The translations under genes were made by a program, and so were the position numbers. From contig OZ242260.1 of the NCBI GenBank assembly GCA_965207065.1, positions 320,001 through 384,000 on the forward strand: a stretch of 64,000 nucleotides of DNA, in the 5' to 3' direction. Origin of the DNA: a bacterium. Its GTDB lineage: Bacteria > UBA8248. The notes beneath the pieces are model-generated. The model made no database searches. It was not told the DNA's origin and saw only the letters and a list, made by a program, of their open reading frames with translations. Positions 3,593 through 43,386 of the stretch are shown piece by piece (within the stretch, counting starts at the first letter, position 1; every line of letters starts with the position of its first letter).

Positions 3593-3869
3593 GATGATAT
3601 GATTTAAAAGCTAAAACGCCGACAATCATGCGCATGGATGCGCTCATATAATATAAATATATGTTTTTAATTGATTTATAATTACATTTTCTTCCGCGTT
3701 GCCCCTTGCGCCATCGCCAGATTTGTGCTGGAATGCGCTCTCAGTTGATGCAGGACGTATGCGTTTTGATGACGTATTTTGACGGGAGCGCCGCGCCGGA
3801 GCATGCGGATGGGCGTTCCCGCAGACCGCCGCAGGCATGCGGTTTGATGACACACCGGAGGGAGGAACC

Positions 3870-9712: not shown

Positions 9713-11656
9713 CTATTCCCCGATCCTATAGAAAAATATCTGGCTCCTCACTCCGGCGAACGGGCCCGAACTCGCCGTCGCCACCACCAGATCGTCGGAA
9801 CCGTCGTTGTCCGCGTCGCCGAATGCGAAATCCACGACCCCGCTGTTCAACTTCCTGGTGCGCCAGGTTTCACTTAACCCGCCACCCTCCCAGAGCAGAC
9901 TCGCTATTTGTCCCCCGGAAACGCCTAACCCTGGCGCAATGGCAGTACTGTATTCGTTGCGAATCACCAGAACTTCATCCACACCGTCCCCCTCGACGTC
10001 TTCGATCATCACGCGCGAGCGTATTGGGAGGTCCGGCGTGTCCGCCTGTTCTTCGCTGCGCTCGGCACCGGCCTGGGAGAAGAACTTATGGACCGCCGCG
10101 CCGTATTTTTCAGAGCTTGAGTAGACCTCTGCGCCGCTCCTCGAGAACACCCGCAGCCTGTCGTCGTTGCCCACCTCAATGACCTCCTGCGCGCCATCCT
10201 TGTTGATGTCCCACAAGCCGAAACCCAGTATCGTCAAATCGGGCGGAAGCGGATAAGGAGCGGCGGACATGAGTTTCCCGCCCGACCAGCGATAGCTGCG
10301 GATGGGACCCTCGAAAGCCTCGTTGAGTCCCTCGCTCTGGCCCAGGAGCAGGTAGGTTTCCGAGTCAGGAAACTTCTCTCCCCTCTTTGGCCGCCGCACC
10401 CGTATCAGGCGATAAAAAGTCCTGTCGTTCCTGACGAGGGGCGTGAACTTACCATTTTTGAACTGCAGGATCATCGAGAACAACTCGTTCGAGCGGTAAG
10501 AGGCGAGGTAGAACTCGGGCGCACCGTCACCGTTCATGTCGGCGACGTCGATCCATCTGAAATCGTTCGCCGCTCCCCCTTCGAAACGCGCGATCTCGCG
10601 CAATCGATTCCCATCGAAGCGGTTGACTATGACCTGAGTCTGCGTGATGAGGACGATTTCGTTCTTCCCGTCTCCGTCCACGTCCGTGAGGGACAACCCG
10701 CGCAAAGCGACCTTGTCGAACGAGTAGCTCTTCATGCCGTCGGCCTTGCCGGGCGAGCCCTCTCGGGCAAACACGAAACTCTCGTTCGCAGGTCCCGCGC
10801 GTTCTCGGCCCCCGCGCCTCAGTTCCTGCACCCTGGGCGCAAGACCCTGATCGAAGGGCAACTCGTCCGCAATCGCCACAGCCTTGAAGAGTTCCTCCTT
10901 CGTGGTGAGGGATAAAAGGCGGGTGGAGAATATCTTCCTCCCCCGGATCTCGCGCAGTTCGTTCTGGAGCGCCATGTCGCCCCGCACCTGGTTCCGCAAG
11001 TGTATGGGGTTTTTGTTTTCAAGAATTTGATGAGAAGCGATGCCCGTCTCGAGGAGCCATACCTGCAGCCTGTCCATGTCGTAAACATCGAAGCGTCCGC
11101 TCCTCAGGAGTTGACGACTCAGCTCCCTCGTAAGCGTTTCCGTGCTGACGGCCTCTTTCGTTCGGTTGACGAAAGGAAGTATCGCCAGGCGGATTTTCGC
11201 GGCGGACATGCGCACCGTGTCCCTGACGCGCGGGGAGAGTCGTCCGCCAGGCGCCAGGCGGACCAGACGCGCGATGGAAAATTTCTCCCGCACCTCGACG
11301 ACTTCGATCTCGCCGATCTCCTCTTCCAGCTTGCCGAGTATGACGCCGCTCGCCGGGTGCCGGAACGGCGCGCCCTCGCGGTAGACACCCAGCTTGACGC
11401 CCTTGACCACCTCATCCTTCTCGCCGAGGCTCAGGTAGAGATCCGCCCCCTTGACGGCAACCACCGAGCCGCTCAGATTCGGAAACTTCCGGTTCAGCTT
11501 TTCGCTGATGAGGCCTAAGGCCTTGCGGTAATCGTTCTCCTGGGCGTGAGTCAAGCCGCCGGATCCACCGAGGAAGATTATAAAAAACAACAGGACGAGC
11601 GGCGCCTTCGCGACGATGCGAGAGAACATGAAAAACCTCATTATAGGGATACTCAC
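9713..11656 (-). CDS. Secreted FG-GAP/VCBS-repeat (beta-propeller) protein with N-terminal FlgT/CsgG-like region, copy A
   Basis: Signal peptide; repeated DxDGDG motifs (DVDGDGKNE, DMNGDGAPE, DINKDGAQE, DVEGDGVDE, DADNDGSDD); start could be a few codons later. Confidence 0.8.
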   Translation of the reverse strand: MSIPIMRFFMFSRIVAKAPLVLLFFIIFLGGSGGLTHAQENDYRKALGLISEKLNRKFPNLSGSVVAVKGADLYLSLGEKDEVVKGVKLGVYREGAPFRHPASGVILGKLEEEIGEIEVVEVREKFSIARLVRLAPGGRLSPRVRDTVRMSAAKIRLAILPFVNRTKEAVSTETLTRELSRQLLRSGRFDVYDMDRLQVWLLETGIASHQILENKNPIHLRNQVRGDMALQNELREIRGRKIFSTRLLSLTTKEELFKAVAIADELPFDQGLAPRVQELRRGGRERAGPANESFVFAREGSPGKADGMKSYSFDKVALRGLSLTDVDGDGKNEIVLITQTQVIVNRFDGNRLREIARFEGGAANDFRWIDVADMNGDGAPEFYLASYRSNELFSMILQFKNGKFTPLVRNDRTFYRLIRVRRPKRGEKFPDSETYLLLGQSEGLNEAFEGPIRSYRWSGGKLMSAAPYPLPPDLTILGFGLWDINKDGAQEVIEVGNDDRLRVFSRSGAEVYSSSEKYGAAVHKFFSQAGAERSEEQADTPDLPIRSRVMIEDVEGDGVDEVLVIRNEYSTAIAPGLGVSGGQIASLLWEGGGLSETWRTRKLNSGVVDFAFGDADNDGSDDLVVATASSGPFAGVRSQIFFYRIGE

Positions 11657-11849
11657 TTAAAGTGGAAACTCCGGCCGTGCATCCTCCACCCGGCAACGGA
11701 GCATGGCTCCCGTTTATCAATCAGCCGTCATATGAAATCGAAGACACAAAGCCCCGAATCATCAAAAAGAACTATACCGCATAATAAGCAGAAAACATAT
11801 CGATTCTCACCATGCGGAAAGCGATTTCGTCTAACGCAGGAGGTGTTTC

Positions 11850-11945
11850 GCCTCGAAGCCGGGCAAGTCCCGCCTCCCTTTGAACTTTTGGTGAAGAGGC
11901 AAGTCGAACCCGCAGGTCTATCTCGCGTGTTTTCGCGCTCCGGAT
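11850..11945 (-). pseudogene. Remnant of the 3' end of the TMTC-like TPR gene (duplicate of about 41446-41540)
   Basis: Translates GARKHAR*TCGFDLPLHQKFK versus GAQKHGREAERFGSPLHPKLK; the intergenic DNA towards the FG-GAP gene is also homologous. Confidence 0.75.
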
Positions 11946-17710: not shown

Positions 17711-18437
17711 GATTCGACCTACCGGTAGCCAGCCATTGCGTCATCCACCGGAATACGGTTTATATCCCCGGGTTTGCGGTTGATGGCAACTTATGGCGCA
17801 TTCCCGGCGAAAACGGAAGAAATCGCCTGTACAAATCCTGCAATTCCCTTCCGCATTCTCCTGTCGGGTTGGCCGGGTCAAGTTGATCTGCCCAGGTTCT
17901 GTGCCCGAATCACTTAATGAAGTCCACCCTCTCATTATTTTCTCTGAAATTACAGATTACCGCCGAAACCGCTCTGTGCCCAATTTACAGAAGGCCTCCG
18001 CTTCAACCCGGCTCTTTCAAACCAGATTCATGACGATCCTTCCAGCCAGTTGTAGACAAGGCTCGAGATCAATGGCGCCAGTACCACTATGATTTTGTTC
18101 GCAAACAAAAGAATATTCTGATTCGTTGAGCCCCCAGCAAATACGGATTGAAAAGTGTGGCCTGCAGTATGCGCCCTTCGCGCCAATCGCCAGACCGGCC
18201 AAGCGATCACAACCAGAGCGGTCAGTGTATAAGTCATGCCCCCAAAAAGCGTCATCTCATCTCCATAGTTCTGCAGTTTCTGTAATGCAGATCTCTGATG
18301 TTCCTTGATGCCGTCTCCCAATCCGCTTCCAAATATCCGTCTGCCCTTCCCTTGAAATTTCCCCTAAGGTAGGGCAGTGATAATGAAAAATAAATGTTTT
18401 TCGCGTATTTCTTCGGGGTTTTGTCGTGCAAATGATC

Positions 18438-18665
18438 GGGTGGACGCTCCCTTCTGGCAGTATCACACTGTGGCGGGGTGACATCGTTTATCACCCGGAA
18501 GGCACACATGGATCGAGTTTCCATCATAGGTATCGATCTGACAAACCGGAGCTTTCAACTCGACGGAGTACGCGCGGACGGGTCGGTCGCGTTCCGGAAG
18601 AAGTTGAGCAGGGCGGAGGTGTTGGGTTTTCTGGCTTCGCAGTTGAATTGTCTGGTAGCGACGGA
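18438..18665 (+). mobile_element. Truncated IS110 (IS1111-type): left end plus first ~50 codons
   Basis: gtggacgctccc..ctggcagtatcacactgtggcg..cccggaagg matches 34650-34722; MDRVSIIGIDLTNRSFQLDGVRADGSVAFRKKLSR. Confidence 0.85.
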
Positions 18666-18863
18666 TACTCCCTTCTCCATTACCAAGGCAACCTCTGGCA
18701 GTTCGCTATCGCTAACTTGATAAGATTACTCGTGTTCTGCATTTTATAATCTATTGGAACACAAACGATTGTAATGCTGCAAAAAATCATGTAGTGCCTC
18801 ACTTTGAAATTCGGTGGTGTTTCAGGTTGAAAATGACAACAAATATTTCTATCCATTTTTCTG

Positions 18864-18893
18864 TTGACATTTTTACGATGATGCGACTACATT
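18864..18893 (+). promoter_or_regulatory. Possible sigma70 promoter
   Basis: TTGACA, 18-nt spacer, TACATT in an AT-rich intergenic region. Confidence 0.4.
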
Positions 18894-19105
18894 TTCGATA
18901 GCAAACGTTATCCACGAGAGAGAACACAAGATGGACTTGTTTGAAATCCTGATTTTAATTCAATCTTATGGCGTTTTGGCTGGTGTATGGTATGGAATAT
19001 ACGTGATGAACGCCAACGCCAAACAGCGTGCAGGCGAGTTTGAGAAAAGGCATGAGGAATCCATGCTTGCCCTCCGAACCCTGATTGAGCGAACAGGAGG
19101 ATGAT

Positions 19106-19465
19106 GTGAAACTGAAACTCACCATTTCATTGCTGATGCTCATCATAGTCAGCGTCATCGCGGTTGCAGCACAGCCGCTTCCAAGCAGAGCGCCTACAAG
19201 TGCGGTTGGTGCGGGAGTTGTGAAACAAAAGGGACTCGATGATACAAAGGGACTTATATTTGTTCCTGTTGATCCTAGAATGCTAAAGAAATGGAAATTA
19301 TCAACTATTTCTGGAGCGGGCAAATTAGTTTACCAGGCGTTAGACGTAGCGACGAAAACTGAGATAACTGTCCTCGAAAGAAGATTGACAGAAATAGAGA
19401 AATCTATCGCTAAAATGCAGGGCTCTCTTGAAGTTATCCTGAATATATTGGCCAATGGGAATTGA
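19106..19465 (+). CDS. Secreted hypothetical protein with C-terminal coiled coil
   Basis: GGAGG RBS then GTG start; signal peptide; heptads LERRLTEIEKSIAKMQG. Confidence 0.6.
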   Translation: MKLKLTISLLMLIIVSVIAVAAQPLPSRAPTSAVGAGVVKQKGLDDTKGLIFVPVDPRMLKKWKLSTISGAGKLVYQALDVATKTEITVLERRLTEIEKSIAKMQGSLEVILNILANGN

Positions 19466-19800
19466 TATGACTACTGGCCCATAAGGACAGAAAAGACCGA
19501 GCGACGCCATCGGTTACATTGTAACAGTCGCCAAGGTCGCCTCTTCGAGTTCCGCTCTTAGAATTTCGTGAATCTTCGCCAGATCCGCAATGAAATAGGC
19601 ACCATAAAGTCCCGAATTTTCAGGTACGCCACTCCCCTTTCTCGACGTTTGCCAAGACGAGGATTCTCGGTTCATTACAGTCGAACATCAACTCTACTCG
19701 ATCGAAACAGAACGGCCTGACGGAACGTCCCTCCCTCCCGTTTCTTCCGAGGAGGCCGCGACACGTGGTGGGTTGCCTCCTTACGGACGGTTCAGTGGAA

Positions 19801-20553
19801 CTATTTGTCTCGGAACCAATCCTCGACTTCGGTGAAGCCACCATAAGCGATTAGGCCTCCAAAAGAGATCGATGCTGTCGCTAAGGGATTGGCAATTCCG
19901 CTCAGGAAGTTGGCTCCGGCTAGCCCGACTCCTCCGAAGAGCTTCGATAAACCCCATCCCAAGCTTGCAGTACGCTCTTTCAGGTTATTTCCTCTGTTCA
20001 GAGTATTGCTCGCTCTTGAGCAGAGAGATTCAATGCTGCTGCTCAGCTTGTTCGTCTGGTAATCGGCCAGCCATCCACCAGGATTCAAGGCGATGTTATG
20101 GCGGTGGGCGATCATAAGCAGCAGAAGGAGTTCCCGTGACTCATCTGAGAACCCGGCGCGCACAAGAATCAGCTCTTCCTTCACAAGAAAGTCTGCAAAC
20201 CTAACTCCAACCCTCGCGGTTTTTCTTGCATCCGCGACATGCCTCAACACTCTTGAAGAAGCGTGTCTCTCAATGTGCTCGATTACCCGTCGCAAGGCGC
20301 GTTGGGAGGTTTCGCACGAGTGCCGGAGAGCTTCCAACAATTGGGCGTGCTCGAGGTTTCCGAGGCGAAATTGAGCAACAGCAAGTACGCGAGATACCCT
20401 ATTGAACGTGTCAACGACCGATTTAAGCGAATTGATGTCAATGCGGTCTTGCTGGGCCGCCAAGTCTCCGGGTGAGTAGAACAATATGCCGACGAGTAGA
20501 CCCATCATAAGTAGCCTTTTCATCTTGCGGCTTGGCTCGATTTTCATAGTCAC
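19801..20553 (-). CDS. Secreted/membrane hypothetical protein
   Basis: 250-aa ORF; signal-like N-terminus; Gly-rich hydrophobic C-terminal helices. Confidence 0.55.
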   Translation of the reverse strand: MTMKIEPSRKMKRLLMMGLLVGILFYSPGDLAAQQDRIDINSLKSVVDTFNRVSRVLAVAQFRLGNLEHAQLLEALRHSCETSQRALRRVIEHIERHASSRVLRHVADARKTARVGVRFADFLVKEELILVRAGFSDESRELLLLLMIAHRHNIALNPGGWLADYQTNKLSSSIESLCSRASNTLNRGNNLKERTASLGWGLSKLFGGVGLAGANFLSGIANPLATASISFGGLIAYGGFTEVEDWFRDK

Positions 20554-20879
20554 TCTCCCAGAAGGTGGCTGTGGTCAATCCATTTGGAGTTTGCCAGGCC
20601 TCGATCCGTAGGTTGGAGGCTCGGATATACACCCTTCAAGCCGGGGTCAATCACCGGTTTCTTGGTCGGCGATTTCAGAGAGTTTGACTTGAGGACGGTC
20701 GGGAAACCGGTCGATGAGCGAGAGACTGTCTCCCATCGCCTCCACCATCCTACGTAGAGCCAAGGGACCCAGCTTCATACTACACTTCTGCTGCTCCGAT
20801 CAAGGCAGGGCCAGGATATCGACTGCTACCACGAGAGCCATTGACCCGGTTGTTTTTTTAGACGGATTTAGACAGAGGG

Positions 20880-21450
20880 TCGGGGATTTCAAACAGGCAA
20901 TCGCACCCGTCGGTATTAATATAGCTGCGCAAGAGACCGACCTTGCGCCATCTGTGGACTGTAATGCCCGACACCCCAAGTAGGTTCGTCGGTCTCGTCA
21001 CTTCGCAACAACCCGCGTTCGCGCAGCCGTTGATAACGCGACTTGAGAGCGTAGCGCTCTCGCACCACACTGACCAACTTCGGAATAAAGGCATGGCCGT
21101 GACCACTTCGGTATCTGCGCTGGTTGAGGATTCAGGCGACCTCGCCATCGGTGTGGTTCTTTCAACAGCCTTTTGATCTCGGCGACGACCTCCTCTCTGG
21201 TCTTGTAGACCTCGTACCAGAGTGGCTCCGATGTCCAGGTCAGCGTCGGATCGCGCCCCCGCGCACATGCACGCCTAGGTTCCGTGTCGACTTGGTTATT
21301 GTCACGTCCTCGTCAGTAGCCGCGCCATCCGCTTGCGCTCGCGGTACCGCGTCGCCGGATTGTTCCACAGGCGGGGGAAGTCGCTCGCCAGCGCGAGGAT
21401 TCGCTTGCGTTGCCCTTCGTCCAACCCCGGTCTCGGCTCGGCTACGCTGG
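20880..21450 (-). pseudogene. C-terminal relic of a large serine recombinase-family gene
   Basis: QRKRILALASDFPRLWNNPAT..RERKRMARLL, EDVTITK..VHVRGGA, LLGVSGITVHRWRKVGLL (HTH), in shifting frames. Confidence 0.55.
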
Positions 21451-21838
21451 AGTTCTCGCCAATCATAGCCAAAGACGAAATAATTAACGTTTCTATCTTG
21501 GAAGAACTTTTTGGTCTCGTCGTAGGGAATGTATATGTCACGCAATGGGCCATCGGCGACGATTACATGGTTATCACGATCACGACCGTTGTTCTCATTT
21601 CGCAACAAGGGCAATAGCCCAAAGAATAGTGTGAGATCAGTGAGCGATGGAACTTGGTTGCGTTGATAGGCTTCGGTTGAGCATTTCAGGTGCTACCCCA
21701 TCCCACCCGGCAGCAACACGATGGGTTAAGTCCTAAACTTGCTGGAAAATTAAGAGGGGGAGCACCAGGCGAACTGGTGACAGTGCAGCCGGTGAGAGTC
21801 CGGCAGGAGGGGTGCAGCGAGACTCACTGCGGTACTAG

Positions 21839-23439
21839 CAGCCTGTCGGACTTGGCCCTGCCAAGAGGGTTGAAGCGACGTCGTGGGAGCGATTCCCGGG
21901 GCTCACGATCATCGACTCGCCTTGACCGGCGATTCGGCGCCAGGAGTCATGATCGGCCCTCACCAGCCCGGTGGGAGTCGTAATGGCCGCCAACAGGCCG
22001 CGGGACGAGGCGTTTTATCGCCCGATCACGCCAGCGTCAGGTTGTGCAGGCGTTTGCAGTTGTAAGCCAACATCACCAGTACCCACTCGCCTTCCACCTT
22101 GTCGAGACCGCGCAGGAGGAACTGCCGGAAGCCCATCGCCTGCTTGACGATGCTGAACACCGGCTCCACCGTCTGCCGACGCAGGCGATAACGGGCGCGC
22201 TCTTCAGGCAGCGCCATCTTCGCGCGCATCGCCGCAATCCAGTCCGCCCGAACCGCCGGACCCTGCCGGGGCGCCACCGGTGGCCGGAAGTCGTGCCGAC
22301 GGCGTCGCCCTTCGGCTTGCGTGGACACCAGCACCTCGGCGCCCCGTTCCTCGAGTCGTTCCACCTCGCTGCCGCTCGCGTAGTCGCTGTCCGCCAGAAC
22401 CCGGGCCGGAGCGCCAATCCCGGGCGGGACCGCGTCCCCGTCCGCCACCAATTCCCGGCGGTCGCTCGCGTTGTTGCTCACCCGCGCACCCAACACCAAC
22501 TGGCTGCCCTCGGCATCCACCACCGCCTGCGCGTTGTACGCCTGACGGTACTCGTGCCGCTTGCTCTTGCGCATCAAGGCGCTGTCCCCATCCGTCAGGT
22601 TAATCTGCTGCCCCTCTTCGGGCTCCTCCCGCGGAGGCTTGGATGCACGGACCCTTGCCCCGGCCCGTACGACGCTCACGAGACGCCACCTTGCGAGCAT
22701 ATGCCGCCCGACCCGCCTCGGCCGCCGTTCCTGCCCGGCGCTCCAACTCCGCGCACGCCTCGTCCAGCCTCGACTTCAACTCTTCGCGACGCGCGAACTC
22801 CTCCGGCAGCGCCTGCGGGTCCGCCACCTTCTGCGCATCTTCGCTCTCCGCCCGTTCCAGCAACTCCTCGACCTCTCCGCGCAACTGCGCCCGCAACGCC
22901 TGCGCACGGCCATACCGGATGTTTTTGTGCTTGTTCGCGTTCGCGTCCACCTTCGTGCCGTCCACACTCACCGTCCCCACTCGCAACAGCTTCAACTCCT
23001 TCGCCAACAGCAGAACCTGCTCGAACGTCTCCGCTACCGCCTCGAAGTTATTCCGGCGGAACGCGGAGAGCGTGTCGTGGTCCGGGTGAGAGTTCGACGC
23101 CACGTACCGAACCCCGATATCACGGTACGTCGCGCGCTCGATCCGCCGCGAACCGAATATCCCGTTCGCATAGCAGTAAATCAGCAGCGCAAGCATCATC
23201 CGAGGATGGTACTGCGCCGAACCCATGCCGCGCTCGTTCACACGGAATGACCTCACCGGCACCCGTTCCACCGCCTCCACTACGAAGTGCGCCAGATCGT
23301 CCTCCGGCAGCCAATCCCGCATGTCCACAGGCAGCAGATACAACTGCGGCTGATCTCTTTCCACAAACTTCGCCACCGCAAGCCCCTCCATTGAAATATG
23401 GAGCAATTATAATTAACAGGGTCTAAGTCCGACAGACTG
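21839..23439 (-). mobile_element. IS1182-family insertion sequence
   Basis: Terminal IRs cagcctgtcggacttggccctg and cagggtctaagtccgacagactg; flanks ctag / gtag. Confidence 0.85.
22026..23406 (-). pseudogene. IS1182 transposase, frameshifted near 22650
   Basis: LLPVDMRDWLPEDDLAHF, YHPRMML..YANGIFGSRRIE, VDGTKVDANA; then NLTDGDSALM, YNAQAVVD, LADSDY, RRQTVEPVF..KQAMGFRQFLLRG. Confidence 0.88.
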
Positions 23440-24116
23440 GTAGTGCCTGTAGCTGGCACTCCTGCCATGAATCACGGATGTACTCGCAGTGTTGTCGGTT
23501 TCCCTGCTGTACACAATCGGGCCACGGGCAAATCTCTTTCCCCTCGGAATCTGCCCTGATAGGGGTGCACAGAACGTCTCCTTCTGGGCCTCCGAACATC
23601 CTTACCCAGTAAAAAACGTTGGGGTGATGATATAGGAAGACTTTGTGTTCCGTCAGCAGACCCATAATCCAATTTAGCCATTTGGGCACGGATTCCATGT
23701 AGTGTCAGAGGTTAACTCCGATTCCCAGAGGATTCTCCGCGTGGATTATCTTGTTAAGTTGGTCGTAAATAGTGATCAGCCTGTCTTCCGTTAGGACATC
23801 TCCCACCTTCTCCTTAGGCTCGGGGTAGTACCTGGCATGTATCCCTCTCAGGTCTCTCATGATCTTCTTGATGTTCCAGGCCTTCCGGAGTTCATCCCGA
23901 GATTTTCGCCAAGCGTCCTTGTTGGAAACCAGGGAGCTGAAAATAATCAGTTCCAAAACTATCCGGAGTTGAAGGCAAGCTGATTCCAACCGGGTCTGGT
24001 TAATAATTCCGCACATCTCCATGAGCCGTTGGATGGCGTCCACCTTGAGCTTTATCTCCTCCATGAGGTCGGAGTACTGGTTGATGTCGAGTTCCTCGGC
24101 CTGTTTTATTTGCCAT
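23423..24116 (-). pseudogene. Hypothetical (possibly HEPN-like) gene split by an in-frame TGA at 23705-23707
   Basis: ORFs 23705..24064 and 23423..23698 are in frame (NL*HYMES); ESACLQLRIVLELI..YDQLNKIIHAENP. Confidence 0.5.
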
Positions 24117-24166
24117 CCGCAGCCTGTGCAGACTATCTCCCATCCCCATCCGACTGGGTCGGTTCC

Positions 24167-24684
24167 CTAGAGTTGGAGCATGTCGTCTCCGCACTCGGGA
24201 CAGATCTGGTACACATTTCCATCTATTCCCTTGACCGGTTCGTTCGATCCGAAGCCCAAGCTCATGCAAACGTCGCTGAACTTAGGCATCTCCCCGCACT
24301 CAGGGCACGGCTTGGTGGGCATAATGCCGTATGTCAGGTACTGGAGGGCAGCTTCTTGATGGCCAAATGGGCATTCCCCCCGGGGCTCTACCTGTCTGGT
24401 TTCCATGAAGATCTCTGATGCCTCCTCACAGGTTCGTACCCCCAGGCATCGGCCAATTTTCTCGACGCTCTCCTCGGTCAGCCGGTACTTTCTCTCAACG
24501 CCAGCTTTCTCCCATTCACCCAGCTTGATCACGTCCCCTGCTCGGTGCCTCTCGGTGTACCTGTTTGCCAGGTACCAGCAGAATCGCCAGTAGGCTTCGG
24601 GGTCTTCTGTCTGCAGAAGTTGCTCCAGGGGATCTACTCTCGGAACTCTCACCCTCTTTCTGAACTTTTTTTCTGCTTGGCCAT
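24167..24684 (-). CDS. Hypothetical protein with two CxxC pairs (probably frameshifted at the N-terminus)
   Basis: CPECG..CPECG; start uncertain. Confidence 0.4.
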
Positions 24685-25321: not shown

Positions 25322-26740
25322 TTATTTTGATTCCTGGGTTTGCCTCAGGAATTCGCGCCCCTCAGGTGTCAGGCGATAGCGCTGGTTCCTGCTGCGTGGT
25401 TTGTCCGGGATAGTCATCTCGATCAGCCCTGCCTGTAGGGCGGGAGATAGATACGCCTTGCGAAAGTGCTCGTCGTTCTTCAACCCAAGCGCGTTCCGGA
25501 GGCCTTGCCTGGTCATTTCTCCCGAAATTGCTTGTAGTAGCCGAACTTCCGTGGTGACTTCCGTGGTGACTTCCGTGGTGACTTGTTCCACCGAACGCAC
25601 AACCGCCCTTTCCCGCACCTCTGGGCTGGGCCAAAAGGTGGCGGTGAAGAAGCCGTTGACCTCGAATTCAGGCTCGGGGCAGCCCTGCGCGCGAGTCTCG
25701 TTTCGGATGCGCCGGATACCGGTACCCGCCTTCTCTATGAAGTCGATACGGTGGAGCAGGTCGGCGATCAACGCGTTGCGTCGAACACTCTTGCTCCCCA
25801 GATCGGAGAGCGACAACCCCCGGGGCAGGTTACCCGGGCTCACAACTTCGATGCGGTCGGCGTAGATCTCGACAAAGACGTTGGCCCCGTCAACAAACCA
25901 ATCGCGGTGCATGACGGCATTCGTGATCGCCTCTCGCAGGGCGTTGGTCGGATACTCTGGGACATTCTCACGCTTGAGTCCTTCTATACGGTAGGCGGTG
26001 CGAGTATTCCGCTCAACGAAGCGCAGGGCGTCTTCGATGTCGGCCACGATTCCGCCGTTGAAATCTTTACGATCCAGAATGTGCACCTTGTCAGTGTCCC
26101 TGGCCAGCAGGCAGGTGATGTAGGCCTGCGGAAAGAAGCGGCGCACATTCTTGGCAAAGAAGAGCACTCCCGCGTTCCTGAAGAGCAATGTGCCATCCAC
26201 TCTTTCGGCCGCCTCGATGTTGACCAGCACATCCTCGACCCGGGGCCGACCGGTTATCCCGGAAAGACTGAGCCAATTGTCGAAGTTTTCGCGGTCAAAG
26301 TCCTCCGGATAGGTGAACCGAGGGCAGGGTGTTAGATCAAATCGGACAGCACCTTCGAACCGGAACAAATCGCGGATTTCGTCGCGACTCAGTTTCTGGG
26401 TCACCGCACCTTGACGCCAGAAAAAGCCGTCGCTGCACTGCACTGGCTTGGTAACGCTTTCACTTACATGGACCGCGAACACTCTGCCAACCAGCTCCGC
26501 TCGCACCAGTACCGGCGGATCGCAATTGCGGGCGATGTCCTGGATGCGGGCACGTAAAGCGTTGGAGTCTTTCACGCCGACCACCGTGCCGTTATCACGC
26601 ACACCCAGGAGAATCTTCCCGCCGATAGTGTTGGCAAGCGCCACAAGCTCCCGTGCGAACGACGACGAGAGACTTTCCTTGAATTCAAGTGTCGTACCTT
26701 CCCCCTCCTGGATGAGGATTTCGAGATCATCGAGTGTCAT
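25322..26740 (-). CDS. AlbA_2/Schlafen-like DNA-binding domain + HATPase_c_4 (RecG-C-like) + C-terminal HTH protein
   Basis: EGTTLEFKE..ALANTIGGKILLGVRD; ALREAITNAVMHRD; SVRRNALIA..IEKAGTGI; TIPDKPRSRNQRYRLT. Confidence 0.88.
   Translation of the reverse strand: MTLDDLEILIQEGEGTTLEFKESLSSSFARELVALANTIGGKILLGVRDNGTVVGVKDSNALRARIQDIARNCDPPVLVRAELVGRVFAVHVSESVTKPVQCSDGFFWRQGAVTQKLSRDEIRDLFRFEGAVRFDLTPCPRFTYPEDFDRENFDNWLSLSGITGRPRVEDVLVNIEAAERVDGTLLFRNAGVLFFAKNVRRFFPQAYITCLLARDTDKVHILDRKDFNGGIVADIEDALRFVERNTRTAYRIEGLKRENVPEYPTNALREAITNAVMHRDWFVDGANVFVEIYADRIEVVSPGNLPRGLSLSDLGSKSVRRNALIADLLHRIDFIEKAGTGIRRIRNETRAQGCPEPEFEVNGFFTATFWPSPEVRERAVVRSVEQVTTEVTTEVTTEVRLLQAISGEMTRQGLRNALGLKNDEHFRKAYLSPALQAGLIEMTIPDKPRSRNQRYRLTPEGREFLRQTQESK
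25546..25584. repeat. 12-bp tandem repeat (gtggtgacttcc, ~3 copies) encoding a VTTE linker
   Basis: Seen directly: VTTEVTTEVTTEV. Confidence 0.85.
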
Positions 26741-34129: not shown

Positions 34130-34579
34130 ATGGAACGACTTAAGTCCTGGATTCCGGCGCTGTCGTGGCTGCCGGCGGGGATTATGGCGGAAGAGGTTCT
34201 GCGCGCGGGGTTCGTGTCCGGAATGATGGCGCCCGCCTCCCTCGTGGAGTTGACATTGGTTGCTCCGTGCGGCCTGCCGCTCGCGCTTGCCTGTAAGCGT
34301 CTCGCCCGCTCGGGGTATCCGGGTCCCGCCCTGGTGGCGTGGGCCGCGCTCGGCGCCGCCGCACTCGCGGGCTTCTTCGGTCCGCTCCCCGCAGGCGTTC
34401 AGGCGGTACTGGTCTCTCTTCCGGTCTGGCTGGCGGCCTGGCGGGTCGAGCGAAGGTCCCGCCGCCCGGGACTCGCCTTGCCTCGGGAATGGCGCGGGCG
34501 TTCGCCCGGCAGGTTCCTCCTACGGGAGTTGAATGACCTGGAAACCCCCCGCCGAAAACGCTTCCGGCAGACGCCCTGA
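34130..34579 (+). CDS. Hypothetical membrane protein
   Basis: Strong RBS (aggaggag); several hydrophobic helices. Confidence 0.5.
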   Translation: MERLKSWIPALSWLPAGIMAEEVLRAGFVSGMMAPASLVELTLVAPCGLPLALACKRLARSGYPGPALVAWAALGAAALAGFFGPLPAGVQAVLVSLPVWLAAWRVERRSRRPGLALPREWRGRSPGRFLLRELNDLETPRRKRFRQTP

Positions 34580-34722
34580 GGTCGACGGGACGGCTGCGGA
34601 GCAGGGCGGCGTCGAAACCTCCCCCCTCCATCGTCGTCCCGCCGATGGGGTGGACGACCCCTCCTGGCAGGTATCACACTGTGGCGAGGTGGCGTCTCTA
34701 AATCGCCCGGAAGGAGTATCCC

Positions 34723-35748
34723 ATGGAACAGGTTCACATCATCGGTATCGACCTGGCGAAACACGGATTTTAACTCCATGGCGCGCGCTCAGACGGTTCG
34801 GTCGCGTTTCGCAAGAAACTGAGCCGGGGGAAAGTACCGGGTTTTCTGTCTTCGCAGCCGCGCTGCCTGATCGCGATGGAGGCGTGCGCGAGCGCGCACT
34901 ACTGGGGCCGCGAGATCGGCAGGCTCGGCCACGAGGTGAAGCTCATGCCACCGGTCTACGTGAAGCCTTACCTTAAGCGTCAGAAGAACGACGCGGCGGA
35001 CGCGGAGGCGATCTGCGAGGCCGCCTCGCGCCCGACCATGCGCTTCGTGGCGGTGAAGAGCGAAGCGCAGCAGGCCCAGGGCATGCTGTTCCGTACGCGC
35101 GATCTCCTGGTTCGCCAGCGCACGCAGACTGCCAATGCGTTGCGCGGTCACTTCGCGGAGTTCGGGGTCATCGCTCCGCAGGGACTGGTGAATACCTCTC
35201 GCCTGGCGGCGGCTCTTGGAGACCCGGTTACGGAGCTGCCGACGGTGGTCCGCGAGTTGGGCGGGGTTCTTCTCGATCAAATTGCCGAACTCAACGAGAA
35301 GATCAGGGAGTTGGAGAGGCAACTCCACGCGGGCGCTTACGCGGACGAGGAGGCGAGGCGTCTGATGAGCATCCCGGGGGTTGGTCCGATCACCGCGTCG
35401 GCGATACTGGCCTTCGCGCCGCCTTTGGAGAGCTTCAAGCGCGGACGGGACTTCTCCGCCTGGCTCGGCCTCGTGCCCAGACAGCACTCGACCGGAGGTA
35501 AGTCCCGACTGGGCAAAGTGTCGAAGATGGGACAGCGCGACATCAGGCGGCTGTTGATCATAGGTGCCATGGCGGTGGTGCGCAGCGCGGTCCGGCGCGG
35601 CGCGCCGGCGGGCTCCTGGCTGGCCCGGATGCTGGCGCGCAAGCCTCGGATGCTGGTCGCGGTGGCGCTGGCGAATCGAATGGCGCGCATCGCCTGGGCG
35701 CTGATAACGAAGAAAGAACTCTACCAGGAACGGGCGCCGGTCGCCTGA
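34723..35748 (+). pseudogene. IS110 recombinase (DEDD RuvC-like + Transposase_20) with nonsense TAA at 34771-34773
   Basis: MEQVHIIGIDLAKHGF*LHG..MEAC..KNDAADAEAI..SIPGVG..AWLGLVPRQHSTGG..VALANRMARIAW, all in one frame. Confidence 0.92.
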
Positions 35749-35997
35749 GCGGCAGACAAACGGATTATCCGGGAATGTGAGCAGGTCGGAGGACGGGTAA
35801 GGGAAAATGGTCAATGAGACAGGATCGGGAAAACCAGGGTACCGCCGAGAGCTATCGAGCTCGCCCCGCCGAATTGGACCCGATCCGCGCATCTCCATAC
35901 AGACCCGCGGCGAATTATATGCCGCATCAAGAGGTCGGACATACGACTGCGCCTGACCACAGACCCTGAATCGTTCAAATGACATGCTTGCATTTAC
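35749..35997 (+). ncRNA. Putative bridge/seek RNA of the IS1111 element
   Basis: Two stem / internal loop / hairpin units (35822-35886 and 35887-35952) whose loop segments match the flanks and the element end. Confidence 0.7.
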
Positions 35998-36048
35998 GGG
36001 GTCGTCCACATACGGCGGTACGTACCCCCGCCGTGCCGGCTCAGGCGC

Positions 36049-36858
36049 TCACCACCCGGCGAGCCCGGAAATCACGGGCGCGTCCTCGACCACCTCCACT
36101 TCCTCGCGGGAGAGCCTCTTGAAGGCGAGGCACATCGCGACTTCCTCCCATGAGTCCAACGGTCCGTGCTCGATGCCCGTGGCCAATTCGACAATGGTGT
36201 AGCGCGGCGGAAAGACCGGCATCCCCCTGTGCACGCCCGAGGAGTGCCAGGAGCGCGAAGCGCAACGGGCGCACCTTGATGCTCCGTCCGAATCCTGGCC
36301 GCAATCAACGCAGGCGTTCCTGGCGCGCCTGTCGCGATAGCGCGCACGGCTGGCGGCGTTCTTGCGCGGGCGGCGCTTTGAATCCCTTGCGGCGCACGAA
36401 GCGCACGTCGAAGCCCCCGCGAGGACCTCTCCTCCGCATCTACCGCAAAGTCCCCTGGCGCGCCTTTTTTCATAAAGCTTCTTCTCCGCCGCGCGGCGCG
36501 AATCCCTGCAATTTTCGCAGACGGTGGCGCCCTCGGCGGGTTCTCGTTCGCCGCAAGTCGTGCAGAGCCCGGCTTCGAGACGATCATCCCGGCGCTTCCT
36601 CGCCCTCACACGCGCCATGCGGCGGCGGCTCTCTGGAGAGCGTCCTCCGTATCGAGCCCCCTCTCCCCGGGCTTTGGCGTACCGGGCGCGTTCGGACATG
36701 CGTCCTCTCTCGAGGCAGAATTCGCAGATACTGCGACCCTGTGCGGGAGGGTGTTTTCCGCACTTCGGACAAGCCCCCCGCGCTCTGCGCTCGGCCGTCC
36801 GGCGCCTGTGTCGTTCGCGTTCATAAGCGCGTCGCTTCTCCGGGTCTTTGTGGGGCAT
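36049..36858 (-). CDS. Arg-rich protein with four tandem CxxC-x(9-11)-CxxC zinc-binding repeats
   Basis: CPKC..CEFC, CTTC..CENC, CGRC..CASC, CVDC..CARC; GGAGG RBS. Confidence 0.75.
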   Translation of the reverse strand: MPHKDPEKRRAYERERHRRRTAERRARGACPKCGKHPPAQGRSICEFCLERGRMSERARYAKARGEGARYGGRSPESRRRMARVRARKRRDDRLEAGLCTTCGEREPAEGATVCENCRDSRRAAEKKLYEKRRARGLCGRCGGEVLAGASTCASCAARDSKRRPRKNAASRARYRDRRARNACVDCGQDSDGASRCARCASRSWHSSGVHRGMPVFPPRYTIVELATGIEHGPLDSWEEVAMCLAFKRLSREEVEVVEDAPVISGLAGW

Positions 36859-36928
36859 GGTTTCCCTCCTTCCGGCGACTGGAGTCCGTACGGCCGGCAG
36901 TGGGCCGACGAAACGTCTTGCGGGCTCA

Positions 36929-38720: not shown

Positions 38721-39307
38721 AAGCCCGAATGGATGTCCGGCAGCGGTTGCTCCGGACCAACCGGAAGCAATACCCAGAGCGCTGCAACGAGCGCCGTCAC
38801 CCCGCCGCCGGACACTGGCCCCCGACATGGGCGCACCGGGACGCGCAGAGGTTGTAATGAATCCGCTTGCGGTTTGATTACTCATTTCAAAGGAGAAAAA
38901 CCAAGCACGCTGCAGCAGGACGAAAAACCGACGTATCTGATATAAAATCAGCTAGTTACATGGAGGCTTTGATTATCGGAAAATGTTGGATACGGTCTGT
39001 TCGATAAAAGAATAAGAGAAGATGATGGTCTTTGTCAACAAACATTCCCGGTGGATATCCAAAAAATTCGTCCCTTGAAGATTCGAATCCTGCACCGGTC
39101 ATCGTGCCGGGAAAAATGTTTAGCAATTGCAAAATCAATCTTTTACAAGATATTCAGTTTCAAAAGGAAACGAAGGGAATTTCTTTTCTCCACCCGGGTC
39201 CCCTCAATTCAAGAAAAAAATTTTCATTTACAGCCTATCCTGGCCCCGCAATTGCGCCCTGCGCCTCAGAAAATCTGGCGAAGCATCATACGATTGAAGC
39301 AGAAGAC

Positions 39308-41227
39308 CTATTCCCTTAGTTTATAGAAGAAAATCTGGCTTTTCTCGCCGGTCAGCGGGCTCGAACTCGTCGCCGCAATTACGAGATCGTCGAAACCGTC
39401 GTTGTCCGCGTCGCCAAATGCGAAATCCACGATTCCCCCGCGCAGTTTTCTGGAGCGCCAGATCTGGGTCAAACCGCTGCCGTCCCATATCAGGCTCGCG
39501 ACCTGACCCCTCGAAACGCCCAGACCGGGTGCGATGCCAACGGCGTATTCGTTGCGGATCACCAGAACCTCGTCCACCCCATCCCTGTCGACGTCTTCGA
39601 CCAGCACGCGCGAGCGTATTGGGAGATCCGGCACATGAATCCTGTCACTGGTGTTTTCAGTATTGGCCTGGGAGAAAAATTTATGGACGGGTGCGCCGTA
39701 GGTTTCAGAACTCGAGTAAATATCCTGCCCACTCATCGAGAAAACCCTCAGCATGTCGTCCTTGCCGACTTCGATGACCTCCAGCGCGCCGTCCTTGTTG
39801 ATATCCCACAAGCCGAAGCCGAGTATCGACAAATCGGGCGGAAGCGCATAGGGGGCGGCAGGCGCGAGCTTTCCTCCCGACCAGCGATAGCTGCGAATGG
39901 GGCCATCGAAAGCCTTGTCGAGTCCTTCTTTCTGGCCCAGGAGCAGGTAGGCTTCTGAATCGGGGATTTTAGCGCCCTTCTTGGGCCGCCTCACTTGAAG
40001 CAGTCGGTAAAACGTCCTGTCGTTCCGGACGAGAGGCGTGAACTTACCATTCTTGTACTGCAGGACCAACGAGAACAACTCATTCGAGCGATAAGAGGCG
40101 AGGTAGAACTCGGGCGCGCCGTCTCCGTTCATGTCGGCGATATCGAGCCAGCGGAAGTCGTTCGCCGCCCCCTCGTCGAAGCGCGCGATTTCGCGCATCC
40201 GGTTATTCTCGAATCGGTTGACGATAACCTGAGTCTGCGTGATGAGGACGACTTCGTTCTTCCCGTCGCCATCCACATCCGCGACAGACATCCCCCGGAA
40301 GGTGACCTTGTCGAACGAGTAGCTTTTTTGACCACCTCTCCCACCTGCTACGCCCTCGCGAGCGAGCACGAAACTCTCGTTCGCAGGTCCTGCACGTCCG
40401 CCTCCCTCGCCGCGATTGAGGTCCTTCACTTGGGGCGGCAAGCTCTGATCGAAAGGAAGTTCATCCGCAATCGCCACGGCCTTGAAGAGTTCCTCCTTCG
40501 TGGTGAGGGACAACAGACGGGTGGAGAGGATTTTCTTACCTTTGATTTCGCGGAGTTCGTTCTCGAGGGCCATGTCGCCCCGAATCTGATTTCGCAGACG
40601 AATCGGGTTCTCACGTTTCAGAATTTCATCGGTGGCAATGCCAGTCTCAAGGAGCCATACCTGGAGCCTGTCCACGTCGTAGACGTCGAAGCGCCCGCTC
40701 CTCAGGAGTTGGCTTCCGAGTTCCCTCGTGAGCGTCTCCATGCTGATGGCCTCTTTCGTCTGGTTGACGAAAGGCAGTATCGCCATGCGAACCTTCGCGG
40801 CGGACATGCGCACCGTGTCTTTGATGCGCGGGGAGAGTTGTCCGCCCGGCGCCAGGCGGACCAGCCGGGCGATGGAGAATTTCTCCCGCACCTCGACGAC
40901 TTCGATCTCGCCGATTTCCTCTTCCAGCTTGCCGAGAACGACGCCCGTCGCCGGGTGTCGGAACGGCGCGCCCTCGCGGTAGACGCCGAGCTTGACGCCT
41001 TTAACAACCTTATCTTTCTCACCCAGGCTCAAGTAGAGGTCCGCACCCTTTACGGCGACCACCGCGCCGCGCAGATTCGGGAATCTCTGGTGCAGCTTCT
41101 CACTGATGAGGCCCAAGGCCTTGCGGTAATCGTTCTCCTGGGCGTGAGTCGAGCCGACGAATAGGCCGAGGGAAATCATGAGCGCCGGCAGGACGAGCGA
41201 CGCCTTCATAACAAAGTGAGAGAACAT
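39308..41227 (-). CDS. Secreted FG-GAP/VCBS-repeat protein, copy B
   Basis: Colinear, highly similar paralog of 9713..11656. Confidence 0.82.
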   Translation of the reverse strand: MFSHFVMKASLVLPALMISLGLFVGSTHAQENDYRKALGLISEKLHQRFPNLRGAVVAVKGADLYLSLGEKDKVVKGVKLGVYREGAPFRHPATGVVLGKLEEEIGEIEVVEVREKFSIARLVRLAPGGQLSPRIKDTVRMSAAKVRMAILPFVNQTKEAISMETLTRELGSQLLRSGRFDVYDVDRLQVWLLETGIATDEILKRENPIRLRNQIRGDMALENELREIKGKKILSTRLLSLTTKEELFKAVAIADELPFDQSLPPQVKDLNRGEGGGRAGPANESFVLAREGVAGGRGGQKSYSFDKVTFRGMSVADVDGDGKNEVVLITQTQVIVNRFENNRMREIARFDEGAANDFRWLDIADMNGDGAPEFYLASYRSNELFSLVLQYKNGKFTPLVRNDRTFYRLLQVRRPKKGAKIPDSEAYLLLGQKEGLDKAFDGPIRSYRWSGGKLAPAAPYALPPDLSILGFGLWDINKDGALEVIEVGKDDMLRVFSMSGQDIYSSSETYGAPVHKFFSQANTENTSDRIHVPDLPIRSRVLVEDVDRDGVDEVLVIRNEYAVGIAPGLGVSRGQVASLIWDGSGLTQIWRSRKLRGGIVDFAFGDADNDGFDDLVIAATSSSPLTGEKSQIFFYKLRE

Positions 41228-41445
41228 GAAAAAACCTCACACAGGCAGCATACTTAAGGTAGAAACTCCGGCAACACCGACACCGCTCCACAACGGAGCA
41301 TGGCTCCGGAAAAAAATCAGCCGTTATAAGTTATCGAAGACAGAAAGCCCCAAACATTCCCAAATATACCGCGTAAGAAGCAGAAAGCAAGCCTATTCAG
41401 TCCATACGAAAAGCCACTCCATCCCGGCGCAGGCTGTGTTTCGCC

Positions 41446-43386
41446 TCAAGGCCGCGTGAGTCCCAATTCCCTCTTGAGTTTCGGGTGAAGCGGCGAGCCG
41501 AACCTCTCGGCCTCTCTCCCATGTTTTTGGGCGCCTGCGCGGTCACCCTCCAGATACAAAGCCAGCGCCAGATTGTGGTGGACGCCACCGTGGCCGGGCT
41601 TAAGCCTCAATGCCGCCCTGAACTGCGCTATAGCCAGACGCCTCGAGCCCGACTTGAGGTAGAGAGTCCCTAAATTGAAGCGCGCCTCCTCCAGCGTGGG
41701 GTTGAGACCAATCGCGCGCTCGAAATGGGGCCTCGCCAAATCGCCGCGCTCAGCGCCCATGTACAGCGCTCCCAGCGCCAGATGCGCCTCCGCGTTCTCG
41801 TCGTTGAGCCGCAGAGCGCGCTTCAAGGAAATTTCGGCGGCGGCCGCATCGCCGCTTTGCATCTGCGCGATGCCTAAATCCACCCAGGCGTAATCGTAGA
41901 CGGGATAGATGGCGACGGATTTTTTAAGCGGCGCTATCGCCTCCCGGAACCTGTTCCGGTCGATCAGGGCCTGTCCATACACCCTGAGCGCACGGGCACT
42001 GTTCGGCGACACTTCCGCCGTACGCCGCCAGAAACGGAGCGCATCGCCCCACTCGTGGTTTCGCTTCATCGTAAGCGCGCCAAAGAGCATGCACACGCCG
42101 ACGAGCAGCGCGGCGGCGACTCGCCAGTCTCTTCCACTGAGCATCACACACACCGTAGGCGCCAGGGCGATGAGAAAACCGGCCGATGGGATATACAGCA
42201 CCCGCTCCGCCATGATGGTGCCCATCGGGATCAGCAGGTTACTCACGGGCAGGTAGGCGCCGATGAAAACGACAAGACCGAAGGCGACCCACGGCATTTC
42301 TTTCCTCAGACGCCAGGCAGAGTAGCCCCACGCCAGAAGCCCCAAAATACCCGCCGCCGCCCAGAGCATCGCTTCCGCTCCTTCCACCGGAATCTGTGCG
42401 AAGGAATAATCCATGCTCAACGGCCATGGCCAGAACAGGAGTTTGATATAGCGGCCCAGGACGCCGATGGCGCCGAAGATTCGCCCGCCTGCCGGCATCA
42501 GCGCCAGGACGTTGTCCAGTTTCGATGGCGGGTAGGGGCGCGCCAGCATCCCCAAGGCGGAATACCGCATCCACACATATATGATGAGCACGAAGGCGAG
42601 CGCGCAGACGGCGATGAGCGTGTTCCTGAGAGGCGGACGCTCCGTCTCTCCCAATACATACCGGCCCCAGAGCCACCACAAAAGAGCGGTGAACAGCAGG
42701 GCGACCCCGATTTCCTTGGACAGCAGCGCAAAAAGGCAAAGCGCGCACGTGAGGCCGACAGGCGCGAGTAAATTTCGATAAGGGGAGCTTCCTTCTCCTC
42801 CCCTATCGGAACTTCCCTGCGCTTCGCCGGGTTTCGCCCCAGGGAGCGCAACGCCCATCAATAGCCCCAATCCCCCGAACACGCCTATGGCGGCCATCAG
42901 GTCGGCGCGCGCGACGACGGCGTTCACCGCCTCGGTATGAACCGGGTGGAGGGCGAACAGCAGGGAAACGGCTCCCGCCGCATTGCGCGAGAGGCCGAAT
43001 CGAACGCACAGCCAGAACAACGCGAGCGAGGCAAAGGCGTGCAACAAGGCGTTGATGATTCGGTAGCCAACCGGATTCAGTCCGCCAAGTGCGTGGTTCA
43101 GCGCAAGGGAGGCGATGGTGAGGGGCCGGTAGAGGCGGTCTCTTCCCTCGTTCGTCTCGAGCACGGCCCAGTAGTCGCGCTGAAAAGCTTCCAGGATGCG
43201 GCCGCTCTCGCGGACCAGGGGATTCTCGCCGATGATGGCGATGTCGTCATGCAGAAACGGGTTCGAAAACGTACCGGCGAAGATGAAAAATGCGGCTCCT
43301 GCAATTGCGCAGATCCAACCCCATTTCACAAGCGAGTGCATTCTTCCTCTCTCATCAGCCGCCAGAACTATCGGGCAATCCGCCAT
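41446..43386 (-). CDS. TMTC-like membrane glycosyltransferase (DUF1736) with C-terminal TPRs
   Basis: FLHDD, YRPLT, LFALHPVHTEAV..RADL, SKE, AERVLYIPS, RNHEW, then TPR repeats. Confidence 0.85.
   Translation of the reverse strand: MADCPIVLAADERGRMHSLVKWGWICAIAGAAFFIFAGTFSNPFLHDDIAIIGENPLVRESGRILEAFQRDYWAVLETNEGRDRLYRPLTIASLALNHALGGLNPVGYRIINALLHAFASLALFWLCVRFGLSRNAAGAVSLLFALHPVHTEAVNAVVARADLMAAIGVFGGLGLLMGVALPGAKPGEAQGSSDRGGEGSSPYRNLLAPVGLTCALCLFALLSKEIGVALLFTALLWWLWGRYVLGETERPPLRNTLIAVCALAFVLIIYVWMRYSALGMLARPYPPSKLDNVLALMPAGGRIFGAIGVLGRYIKLLFWPWPLSMDYSFAQIPVEGAEAMLWAAAGILGLLAWGYSAWRLRKEMPWVAFGLVVFIGAYLPVSNLLIPMGTIMAERVLYIPSAGFLIALAPTVCVMLSGRDWRVAAALLVGVCMLFGALTMKRNHEWGDALRFWRRTAEVSPNSARALRVYGQALIDRNRFREAIAPLKKSVAIYPVYDYAWVDLGIAQMQSGDAAAAEISLKRALRLNDENAEAHLALGALYMGAERGDLARPHFERAIGLNPTLEEARFNLGTLYLKSGSRRLAIAQFRAALRLKPGHGGVHHNLALALYLEGDRAGAQKHGREAERFGSPLHPKLKRELGLTRP

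Follow-up and report, generated by a model that had tools for sequence, protein, structure and literature searches.

RNA-guided target choice by insertion sequences (ISs) of the IS110 family and its IS1111 group was published in 2024, and the bridge RNA of one of these elements, IS621, is reportedly the subject of Hiraizumi et al. 2024. In the excerpts of the three papers on which we draw here, IS621 (Durrant et al. 2024, PMC11208160) is described as using an RNA with two internal loops, target-binding and then donor-binding, and a core dinucleotide common to target and donor; its right donor guide is called discontiguous. The same source places the bridge RNA in the right end of 93% of IS1111 elements. 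Four members of that group, ISEc11, ISPa11, ISKpn4 and ISPst6 (Siddiquee et al. 2024, PMC11187229), are described with DEDD transposases of 330-350 amino acids (aa) that carry the motif GL-P----S(t)G, and with subterminal inverted repeats; of their two non-coding regions, the one that follows the transposase gene (tnp) is the longer, and close relatives have different targets. Read from its 5' end, each of their seekRNAs first presents the stretch that can pair with the top strand and then the stretch that can pair with the bottom strand; on the target, these two matches share bases. The same paper reports short seekRNA forms of 82-96 nt as well as a longer form. ISPpu9 and ISPpu10 of Pseudomonas putida (PMC12288879) belong to the IS110 family and have a gene for a small RNA downstream of tnp; they insert at repeated palindromic sequences and form circular intermediates. 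Here we describe an IS1111-group element at positions 34645-36012 of a 64,000-nucleotide (nt) stretch of the bacterial contig OZ242260.1. This whole stretch, which we call the window, corresponds to 320001-384000 of a genome (G000) that consists of one 4.48-Mb contig. We hold it very likely that the element moves, or formerly moved, by RNA-guided recombination, and that its 3' non-coding region encodes a bridge/seek RNA.

The window copy resembles the four IS1111 elements in all the features listed for them, and its guide geometry (strand order, overlap in the target and position in the right end) is that published for IS1111 seekRNAs. It differs from them in its host lineage, in its target, which is intergenic and belongs to a multi-copy mobile-element module containing SSB, in being non-autonomous (a stop codon interrupts tnp), and in being known from sequence alone. 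With IS621 it shares the order of the two loops and the common core, and its putative right donor guide would likewise pair irregularly; unlike in IS621, the RNA lies in the right rather than the left end, and the subterminal repeats measure 12 base pairs (bp) rather than 2-3 bp. Compared with the IS110 type as described in PMC11187229, the strand order of the guides on each loop is reversed. Family membership and a downstream RNA gene are shared with ISPpu9 and ISPpu10, from which the window copy is set apart by the tight covariation of its RNA loops with targets and the right end; in addition, a search of its genome with the covariance model R1 (see below) found no solo RNA copies above 31 bits. 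Among the relatives of its transposase, identity does not exceed 75% for those found in genome contigs and about 68% for those found in plasmids.

The locus adds no new mechanism, and the NCBI family name of its transposase already reads "RNA-guided transposase". Its value is that of an unusually clean natural example: four differently programmed copies stand in one genome, each matching its own site. Paralogous targets that are still unoccupied can be found there too, as can a sister lineage that is intact and was, it appears, active recently.

Limits and identity of the element

The exact limits of the window copy are known because the same genome holds uninterrupted paralogues of its insertion site, at G000 20134-20226 and 4448549-4448641. 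In these paralogues, the flanks of the element abut as ..GTCGGCCCGC-CG-GCGGTACGTACC.., the empty sites reading ..GGCCCGC-CG-GCGGTAC... The occupied site reads ..CCCGC-CG-[ATGGGG...CCACATA]-CG-GCGGTAC.., with CG on both sides of the 1368-bp plus-strand element and no further duplication. As expected of the IS110 family, insertion was site-specific, and the target duplication consists of the shared core dinucleotide alone. This core is CG, and that of IS621 is CT.

The further features place the element in the IS1111 group, to which a preliminary description made from the letters of the window had already assigned it; domain content, repeats, length and non-coding region all bear this out. The 12-bp subterminal repeats fall within the 7-17 bp of the group and leave short terminal extensions of 5 nt and 3 nt. 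Relatives keep the left-end motif ATGGnGTGGAyGCC, and the right subterminal repeat is likewise conserved. Downstream of tnp, the non-coding region extends over 264 nt (35749-36012), compared with 78 nt upstream (34645-34722). Read through with an X, the protein matches Pfam PF01548 (DEDD_Tnp_IS110; 1.2e-13) and PF02371 (1.3e-23), and its 341 codons lie within the 330-350 aa typical of the group. The intact protein of a sister copy (P0002) matches NCBIfam NF033542, "IS110 family RNA-guided transposase", with 322 bits (cut-off, 140). The motif of the IS110-family C-terminal domain, worded G(L)-P----S(t)G in PMC11187229, appears in the window copy as GLVPRQHSTG (WLGLVPRQHSTGG); the sisters have ..RQHSSGG. 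The in-frame TAA that had been noticed in the open reading frame (ORF) is indeed present, at codon 17, where the sister copies have CAG; the ORF is otherwise full length, with its motifs in place.

Loop segments that follow the flanks

The predicted RNA gene (35795-35962) lies downstream of the ORF, which ends at 35748, as had been proposed. All the strings in which the preliminary description recognized the RNA are in place: the stem ggatcggg (35822-35829)/cccgatcc (35879-35886), the hairpin gagct-atcg-agctc (35849-35862), the loop segment gtaccgccg (35839-35847), which is the reverse complement of cggcggtac (36013-36021), and, in a second unit, gcgca (35887-35891)/tgcgc (35948-35952) and gcggc (35907-35911)/gccgc (35921-35925). 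A further loop segment, cccgccga (35865-35872), had been equated with the left flank at 34638-34645. The two strings are equal, but the final A (34645) is the first base of the element, and the match to the flank itself comprises 7 nt (CCCGCCG).

That these two segments act as target guides had been suggested from the window copy alone, and it is borne out by their covariation with the flanks, both in the same genome and in relatives. In the same genome, the guides match the flanks of their own copy perfectly, on the right in four of four cases (9/9 each) and on the left in three of three (7/7 each; Table 1). The window copy and its sister L002 differ at 60 positions, 7 of which fall among the 16 guide positions. 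Bases 35841-43 and 35864-67 are diagnostic of the RNA of the window copy. Such 96%-identical copies with different guides, occupying correspondingly different sites, are the natural counterpart of a guide change.

The same relation holds across relatives. Among 80 related rows with guides, the right flank could be called in 68 and the left flank in 70. Counting unique guide/flank combinations, the right guide matched its own flank at a mean of 6.98 of 9 positions (n = 63), compared with 3.97 in 3874 non-self pairings, and the left guide at 6.26 of 7 (n = 58), compared with 2.66 in 3280 non-self pairings. When each guide type from other genomes was represented by one row, the 53 types with both flanks matched at a mean of 13.4 of 16 positions, compared with 6.8 ± 0.27 after permutation of the flanks, and none of 10,000 permutations reached the observed value. 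A score of at least 12/16 was found for 45 of the 53 types, nine of which were perfect, and 28 combined at least seven matches of the right target guide with at least six of the left. The guide/flank pattern recurs in 27 further R1 matches from same-genus or same-class genomes (22 with both flanks called); some multi-copy lineages there stand in different contexts around one common short target, and the IS family was present in 14 of the 18 same-genus genomes searched. As expected of a bridge RNA, the loop segments covary with both target halves, match opposite strands and overlap on the core.

A variant arrangement was seen in metagenome-assembled genomes (MAGs) of Vicinamibacterales, where an additional stretch of about 170-340 nt separates the guide RNA from the right end in the copies L012, L016, L018, L019, L022-L025, L027 and L030. 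Most of these copies have TG as the left core but CG in the guide and the right core (the right-end calls of L022 and L030 are doubtful, and L024 has none).

A conserved predicted RNA fold

Folding of 35749-36025 as RNA gives both modules listed in Table 1, with a minimum free energy of -101.1 kcal/mol (z = -2.4). We scored an alignment of 41 versions of the RNA region (A1) against the proposed structure. Paired cells amounted to 90.7%, compared with 84.5% in shuffles and 29-37% with slid partners, and compensatory change, with both sides changed, was found at 16 pairs; none of 500 shuffles reached the observed values. The five helices given for the two modules in Table 1 were paired in 97-100% of cells. 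The comparison of the right end with its targets across homologs, which had been proposed as a check, came out positive on both counts, with five covarying helices and with the guide scores reported above. The structure is that of a bridge RNA, a structured non-coding RNA with helices backed by covariation. The second unit stood only in part as it had been drawn: its inner helices are among those five, but its outer stem (35887-91/35948-52) is paired in just 53% of cells across the 41 relatives, so it is specific to the clade of the window copy, and we omitted it from R1. Over the window, seven loci of the same genome and 80 related loci, R1 gave 90 matches, 81 of which span more than 150 nt; five strong copies lie in the genome of the window itself.

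In an alphaproteobacterial MAG (L034:2457-3361), seven identical tandem partial copies of the guide-RNA region, 119 nt each with a period of 131, directly follow the right end of a related IS. These copies include the donor loop and the right end, and the array may have been made by repeated recombination at the right end.

Proposed donor guides and copies in the same genome

The preliminary description had pointed to catac in both strands of the donor loop as a match to the end of the element. For the 3' strand this is correct: the left donor guide (ACATACG in the window copy) equals the right end of its own element plus the core, 7/7 in 56 of 58 rows, and the same is true of same-genus copies. 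Nine distinct left donor guides were found, among them ACACACG, ACACATG, ACAGATG, ATACATG and ACAAAAG, each perfect to its own right end. In relatives, no such agreement with the right end is seen for the 5' strand, whose catac is therefore a coincidence. This strand carries CTCCAT, which is probably the right donor guide, pairing with the left end.

TABLE 1 Features of the IS1111-group element in the window and its copies in genome G000 (positions are those of the window unless G000 is given)
Feature	Position	Strand	Description
Left target half, core dinucleotide	34643..34644	+	CG; last two bases of left target half; from comparison with empty paralogous sites
Insertion sequence proper	34645..36012	+	Ends from empty sites G000 20134-20226 and 4448549-4448641 and from four other copies
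Left subterminal inverted repeat	34650..34661	+	GTGGACGACCCC; 5 nt inside left end; reverse complement of 35998-36009
Transposase gene (predicted RNA-guided DEDD recombinase)	34723..35748	+	341 codons; in-frame TAA at codon 17 (34771-34773)
Bridge/seek RNA gene (predicted)	35795..35962	+	Conserved 5' leader, target-binding module, donor-binding module; covariance model R1, 166.9 bits
Target-binding module	35822..35886	+	Outer stem 35822-29/35879-86; inner CCA 35834-36/TGG 35875-77; apical hairpin 35849-62
Right target guide	35839..35847	+	GTACCGCCG; reverse complement of right flank including core (36013-36021), 9/9
Left target guide	35865..35871	+	CCCGCCG; equals top strand of left flank including core (34638-34644), 7/7; would pair with bottom strand
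Donor-binding module	35887..35952	+	Helices GACC 35902-05/GGTC 35933-36 and GCGGC 35907-11/GCCGC 35921-25
Right donor guide (putative)	35893..35898	+	CTCCAT; complementary (one G:U) to left end ATGGGG (34645-34650)
Left donor guide	35939..35945	+	ACATACG; equals last 5 nt of element plus core (36008-36014)
-35-like sequence (putative)	35988..35993	+	TTGCAT; joined ends of a circle would give -10-like TA+CG+AT 17 nt on
Right subterminal inverted repeat	35998..36009	+	GGGGTCGTCCAC; 3 nt inside right end
Right target half, core dinucleotide	36013..36014	+	CG; first two bases of right target half
Window copy, guides and flank			Right guide GTACCGCCG; right flank CGGCGGTAC; left guide CCCGCCG
Sister copy L002	G000 1933144-1934519		96% identical to window copy; intact 341-aa ORF
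Sister copy L003	G000 4446332-4447706		96% identical to window copy; intact 341-aa ORF
L002/L003, guides and flank			Right guide GTCTGGCCG; right flank CGGCCAGAC; left guide TGGGCCG
Copy L004+L007	G000 1511425-1515381		Single IS copy; about 2.6 kb of foreign DNA splits its transposase gene
L004 (+L007), guides and flank			Right guide GTATGGCCG; right flank CGGCCATAC; left guide CAGGACG
Copy L006			5' end truncated; right side only: right guide GTACATTCG; right flank CGAATGTAC
Copy L005			Without RNA region

A single indel in 1376 nt distinguishes the two sister copies L002 and L003, whose flanks are just 79-84% identical. Because the copies are near-identical and the flanks have diverged, we take them as two independent insertions into two paralogues, each time at the site that corresponds to window position 36908. 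Judging by these sequences, the sister lineage looks recently active. It had been suggested that repair of one codon of the window copy could restore a recombinase; such a repair is unnecessary, since two 96%-identical copies with intact ORFs exist in the same genome.

The window copy is the only one in the genome with its guide pair. For each of four guide pairs, the 4.48-Mb genome contains one or two perfect, unoccupied 14-nt targets, compared with about 0.03 expected per random 14-mer by an arithmetic estimate. The guides of the window copy have two perfect 14-nt targets and one target with a single mismatch in paralogous modules, all empty, and another single-mismatch site elsewhere in the genome, outside these modules. 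For the guides of the sister lineage, one more perfect target in the genome is still empty. The empty perfect targets include those at G000 20173, 4448588 and 1550232. The equivalent of the sister-lineage target in the window itself, at 36895-36920, is unoccupied and degenerate, its left half TGGGCCG matching at 7/7 and its right half CGACGAAAC at 6/9.

Proposed mechanism and evidence for and against it

Beside the anatomy, the boundaries and the covariation of helices and guides (with flanks and right end) observed here, we infer from the published mechanism of the family that the region acts as RNA and that the element moves through a circular intermediate, with a junction promoter, and strand exchange. 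In the target module, the two guides would pair with the two target halves, both pairings overlapping on the core CG; in the donor module, the 5' strand would probably engage the left end. With this RNA bound to it, the DEDD recombinase would bring the circular element (right end-CG-left end) to the 14-bp target CCCGC-CG-GCGGTAC, and exchange of strands at the core would leave CG on both sides and duplicate nothing else.

A possible junction promoter would be formed from the -35-like and -10-like sequences given in Table 1. TTGC is found at exactly this distance in 49 of 55 distinct right-end tails of relatives, and the arrangement TTGCAT/TACGAT fits the junction promoters known in IS110/IS1111 elements. 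One such promoter has reportedly been found in the IS1111 member ISEc11. A hybrid junction promoter is also described for ISPpu10 (PMC12288879). A terminator scan of 34500-36150 gave one terminator-like site, inside the ORF, which is no more than in shuffles. A joint 34625>36013 in run X1, considered as an excision product, was rejected because it corresponds to a paralogous empty site.

Several observations weigh against the interpretation as an RNA-guided element. The sole signal in RNA libraries was a 249-nt contig of a relative (20 differences) in run X16, covering 35736-35984; RNA libraries can hold DNA, and the RNA-library contigs, all of them from relatives, cover parts of the element only. 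The runs examined, for which contigs only were available, showed no circle junction, so that absence cannot be concluded. A sigma-70 promoter scan of 34500-36150 in the integrated copy gave no promoters, and an Rfam 15 search of 34300-36400 (E-value mode) gave no family matching the element, its sole match being a chance miRNA outside it. In the 5' strand of the donor loop, CCAT is constant where the ATGG of the left end is constant, and agreement at the next position is limited to part of the rows; pairing of the right donor guide with the core found no support in covariation with the core across rows. As to the target guides, 12 related rows were dropped on the right and 10 on the left when flanks were called, 25 of the 53 guide types fell below the combined threshold of seven and six matches, and agreement is poorer in the Vicinamibacterales rows, whose right end is preceded by about 300 additional nt. 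In several weak rows the fixed span used for extraction had cut a guide, and the shortfall of the 25 types is due in part to register shifts or scripted end calls; the match is strong on average and imperfect.

Alternative explanations and present activity

The TAA at codon 17 prevents the window copy from making its own enzyme, no other copy has its guides, and two perfect targets remain empty; the window copy is therefore most likely immobile now. We lean slightly towards the stronger explanation that it is a dead relic, in which the guides record a past insertion and both RNA and element are inactive today, even with the sister enzyme supplied in trans. The stop codon and the uniqueness of the guides fit this explanation, as does the failure to find a promoter-like site in the integrated copy. 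Most pertinent are the empty targets, two perfect and one with a single mismatch in paralogous modules, which have stayed unoccupied despite an intact enzyme that is 96% identical at the DNA level and comes with the same ends and the same donor guide. However, the RNA scaffold shows no damage and has a score that no relative exceeds, the ORF is full length with its motifs apart from the one codon, and a seekRNA is, according to the excerpts of PMC11187229, not strictly confined to very close transposases. The relic explanation concerns the present state alone and is compatible with the identity of the element as an RNA-guided IS.

It is very improbable that the structured 3' region instead acts as DNA, providing recombinase-binding sites or a cruciform, and that the flank matches reflect an enzyme recognising similar DNA in element and target. 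Although no transcript was demonstrated here, the two guides correspond to opposite strands in the two target halves, with the core common to both matches, and this geometry has been shown experimentally for RNA in this family (PMC11187229, PMC11208160, as excerpted). Helix covariation would fit single-stranded DNA too, but the helices tolerate G:U pairs, which would be G-T in DNA (for example, 10 G:U at pair 36/104), and the RNA-library contig over the region in a relative adds a weak argument for RNA. The idea that the flank complementarity arose by chance, in a region and flanks that are GC-rich and where CCGCCG-type words are common, can be set aside as having a negligible probability, given that 200,000 shuffles of the 264-nt non-coding region contained both the 9-mer and the 7-mer of the window copy 9 times, that copies with other flanks carry correspondingly different guides and that no permutation reached the family-wide score.

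Returning to the interpretation as an RNA-guided element, we also considered a bolder extension, which we regard as possible but rather doubtful. The window type sits at the site equivalent to window 34644, and the L002 type at the equivalent of 36908, in two paralogues. Several IS1111 lineages in this genome, differing by just 4-5% outside the guides, might each have exchanged both target guides for ones directed at a different conserved intergenic site of one multi-copy, relaxase-linked mobile-element module, and might have spread with its paralogues; the intact RNA of the window copy could perhaps re-direct the sister enzyme in trans. If this were true, nature would have provided, in one genome, a set of re-programmed guides together with their targets, some occupied and some empty, in which one could ask how the guide halves change together. 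The four copies, the empty targets and the sister lineage also supply ready guide/target pairs for testing the rules of IS1111 bridge RNAs, in which the right guide has 9 nt, the left guide and the left donor guide have 7 nt each, and the core is CG.

Target site and surroundings

The insertion site is intergenic and lies 35 nt past the stop of an ORF for a Cys-rich protein (36049-36858, minus strand). The surrounding module (window ~30.2-38.1 kb) comprises YAcAr/SLOG, DUF4326 and SSB genes together with the Cys-rich ORF, and it recurs at least 10 times in the genome at 68-90% identity, including at G000 18089-24480, 74201-80563, 908300-914038, 1545885-1550998, 1932403-1939024 and 4445155-4452138.

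The flanks had been read as an imperfect palindrome and the target consequently as a hairpin. We rejected this reading. A GC-rich hairpin is possible at the three empty paralogous sites, but they fold no better than shuffled sequences (z = +1.5 to -2.2), and 51 reconstructed family targets had a mean fold z of -0.11, compared with -0.22 in control windows (p = 0.79). The target had further been placed in a conjugative leading region. Six TrwC relaxase genes (PF08751) and three coupling-protein genes (PF02534) lie 0.5-40 kb from copies of the module, but none lie in the window, and the relaxase families PF03432 and PF03389 had no match in the genome; the leading region is a plausible and reasonable guess.

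A tRNA scan of the window found none. The window has two tyrosine integrase genes at 3837-6220. Judging by the recurrent module and the relaxase genes near its copies, many related integrative elements appear to be present in the genome. Window 9617-11941 and 39212-41535 are two copies of a gene that combines FG-GAP repeats with an LpoB-like domain, in the same orientation and 78.6% identical over 2.3 kb; the pair brackets an island of about 30 kb that holds the IS. The same island contains, at window 25322-26740 on the minus strand, an ORF with Schlafen AlbA_2, HATPase_c_4 and Fic-like C-terminal domains.

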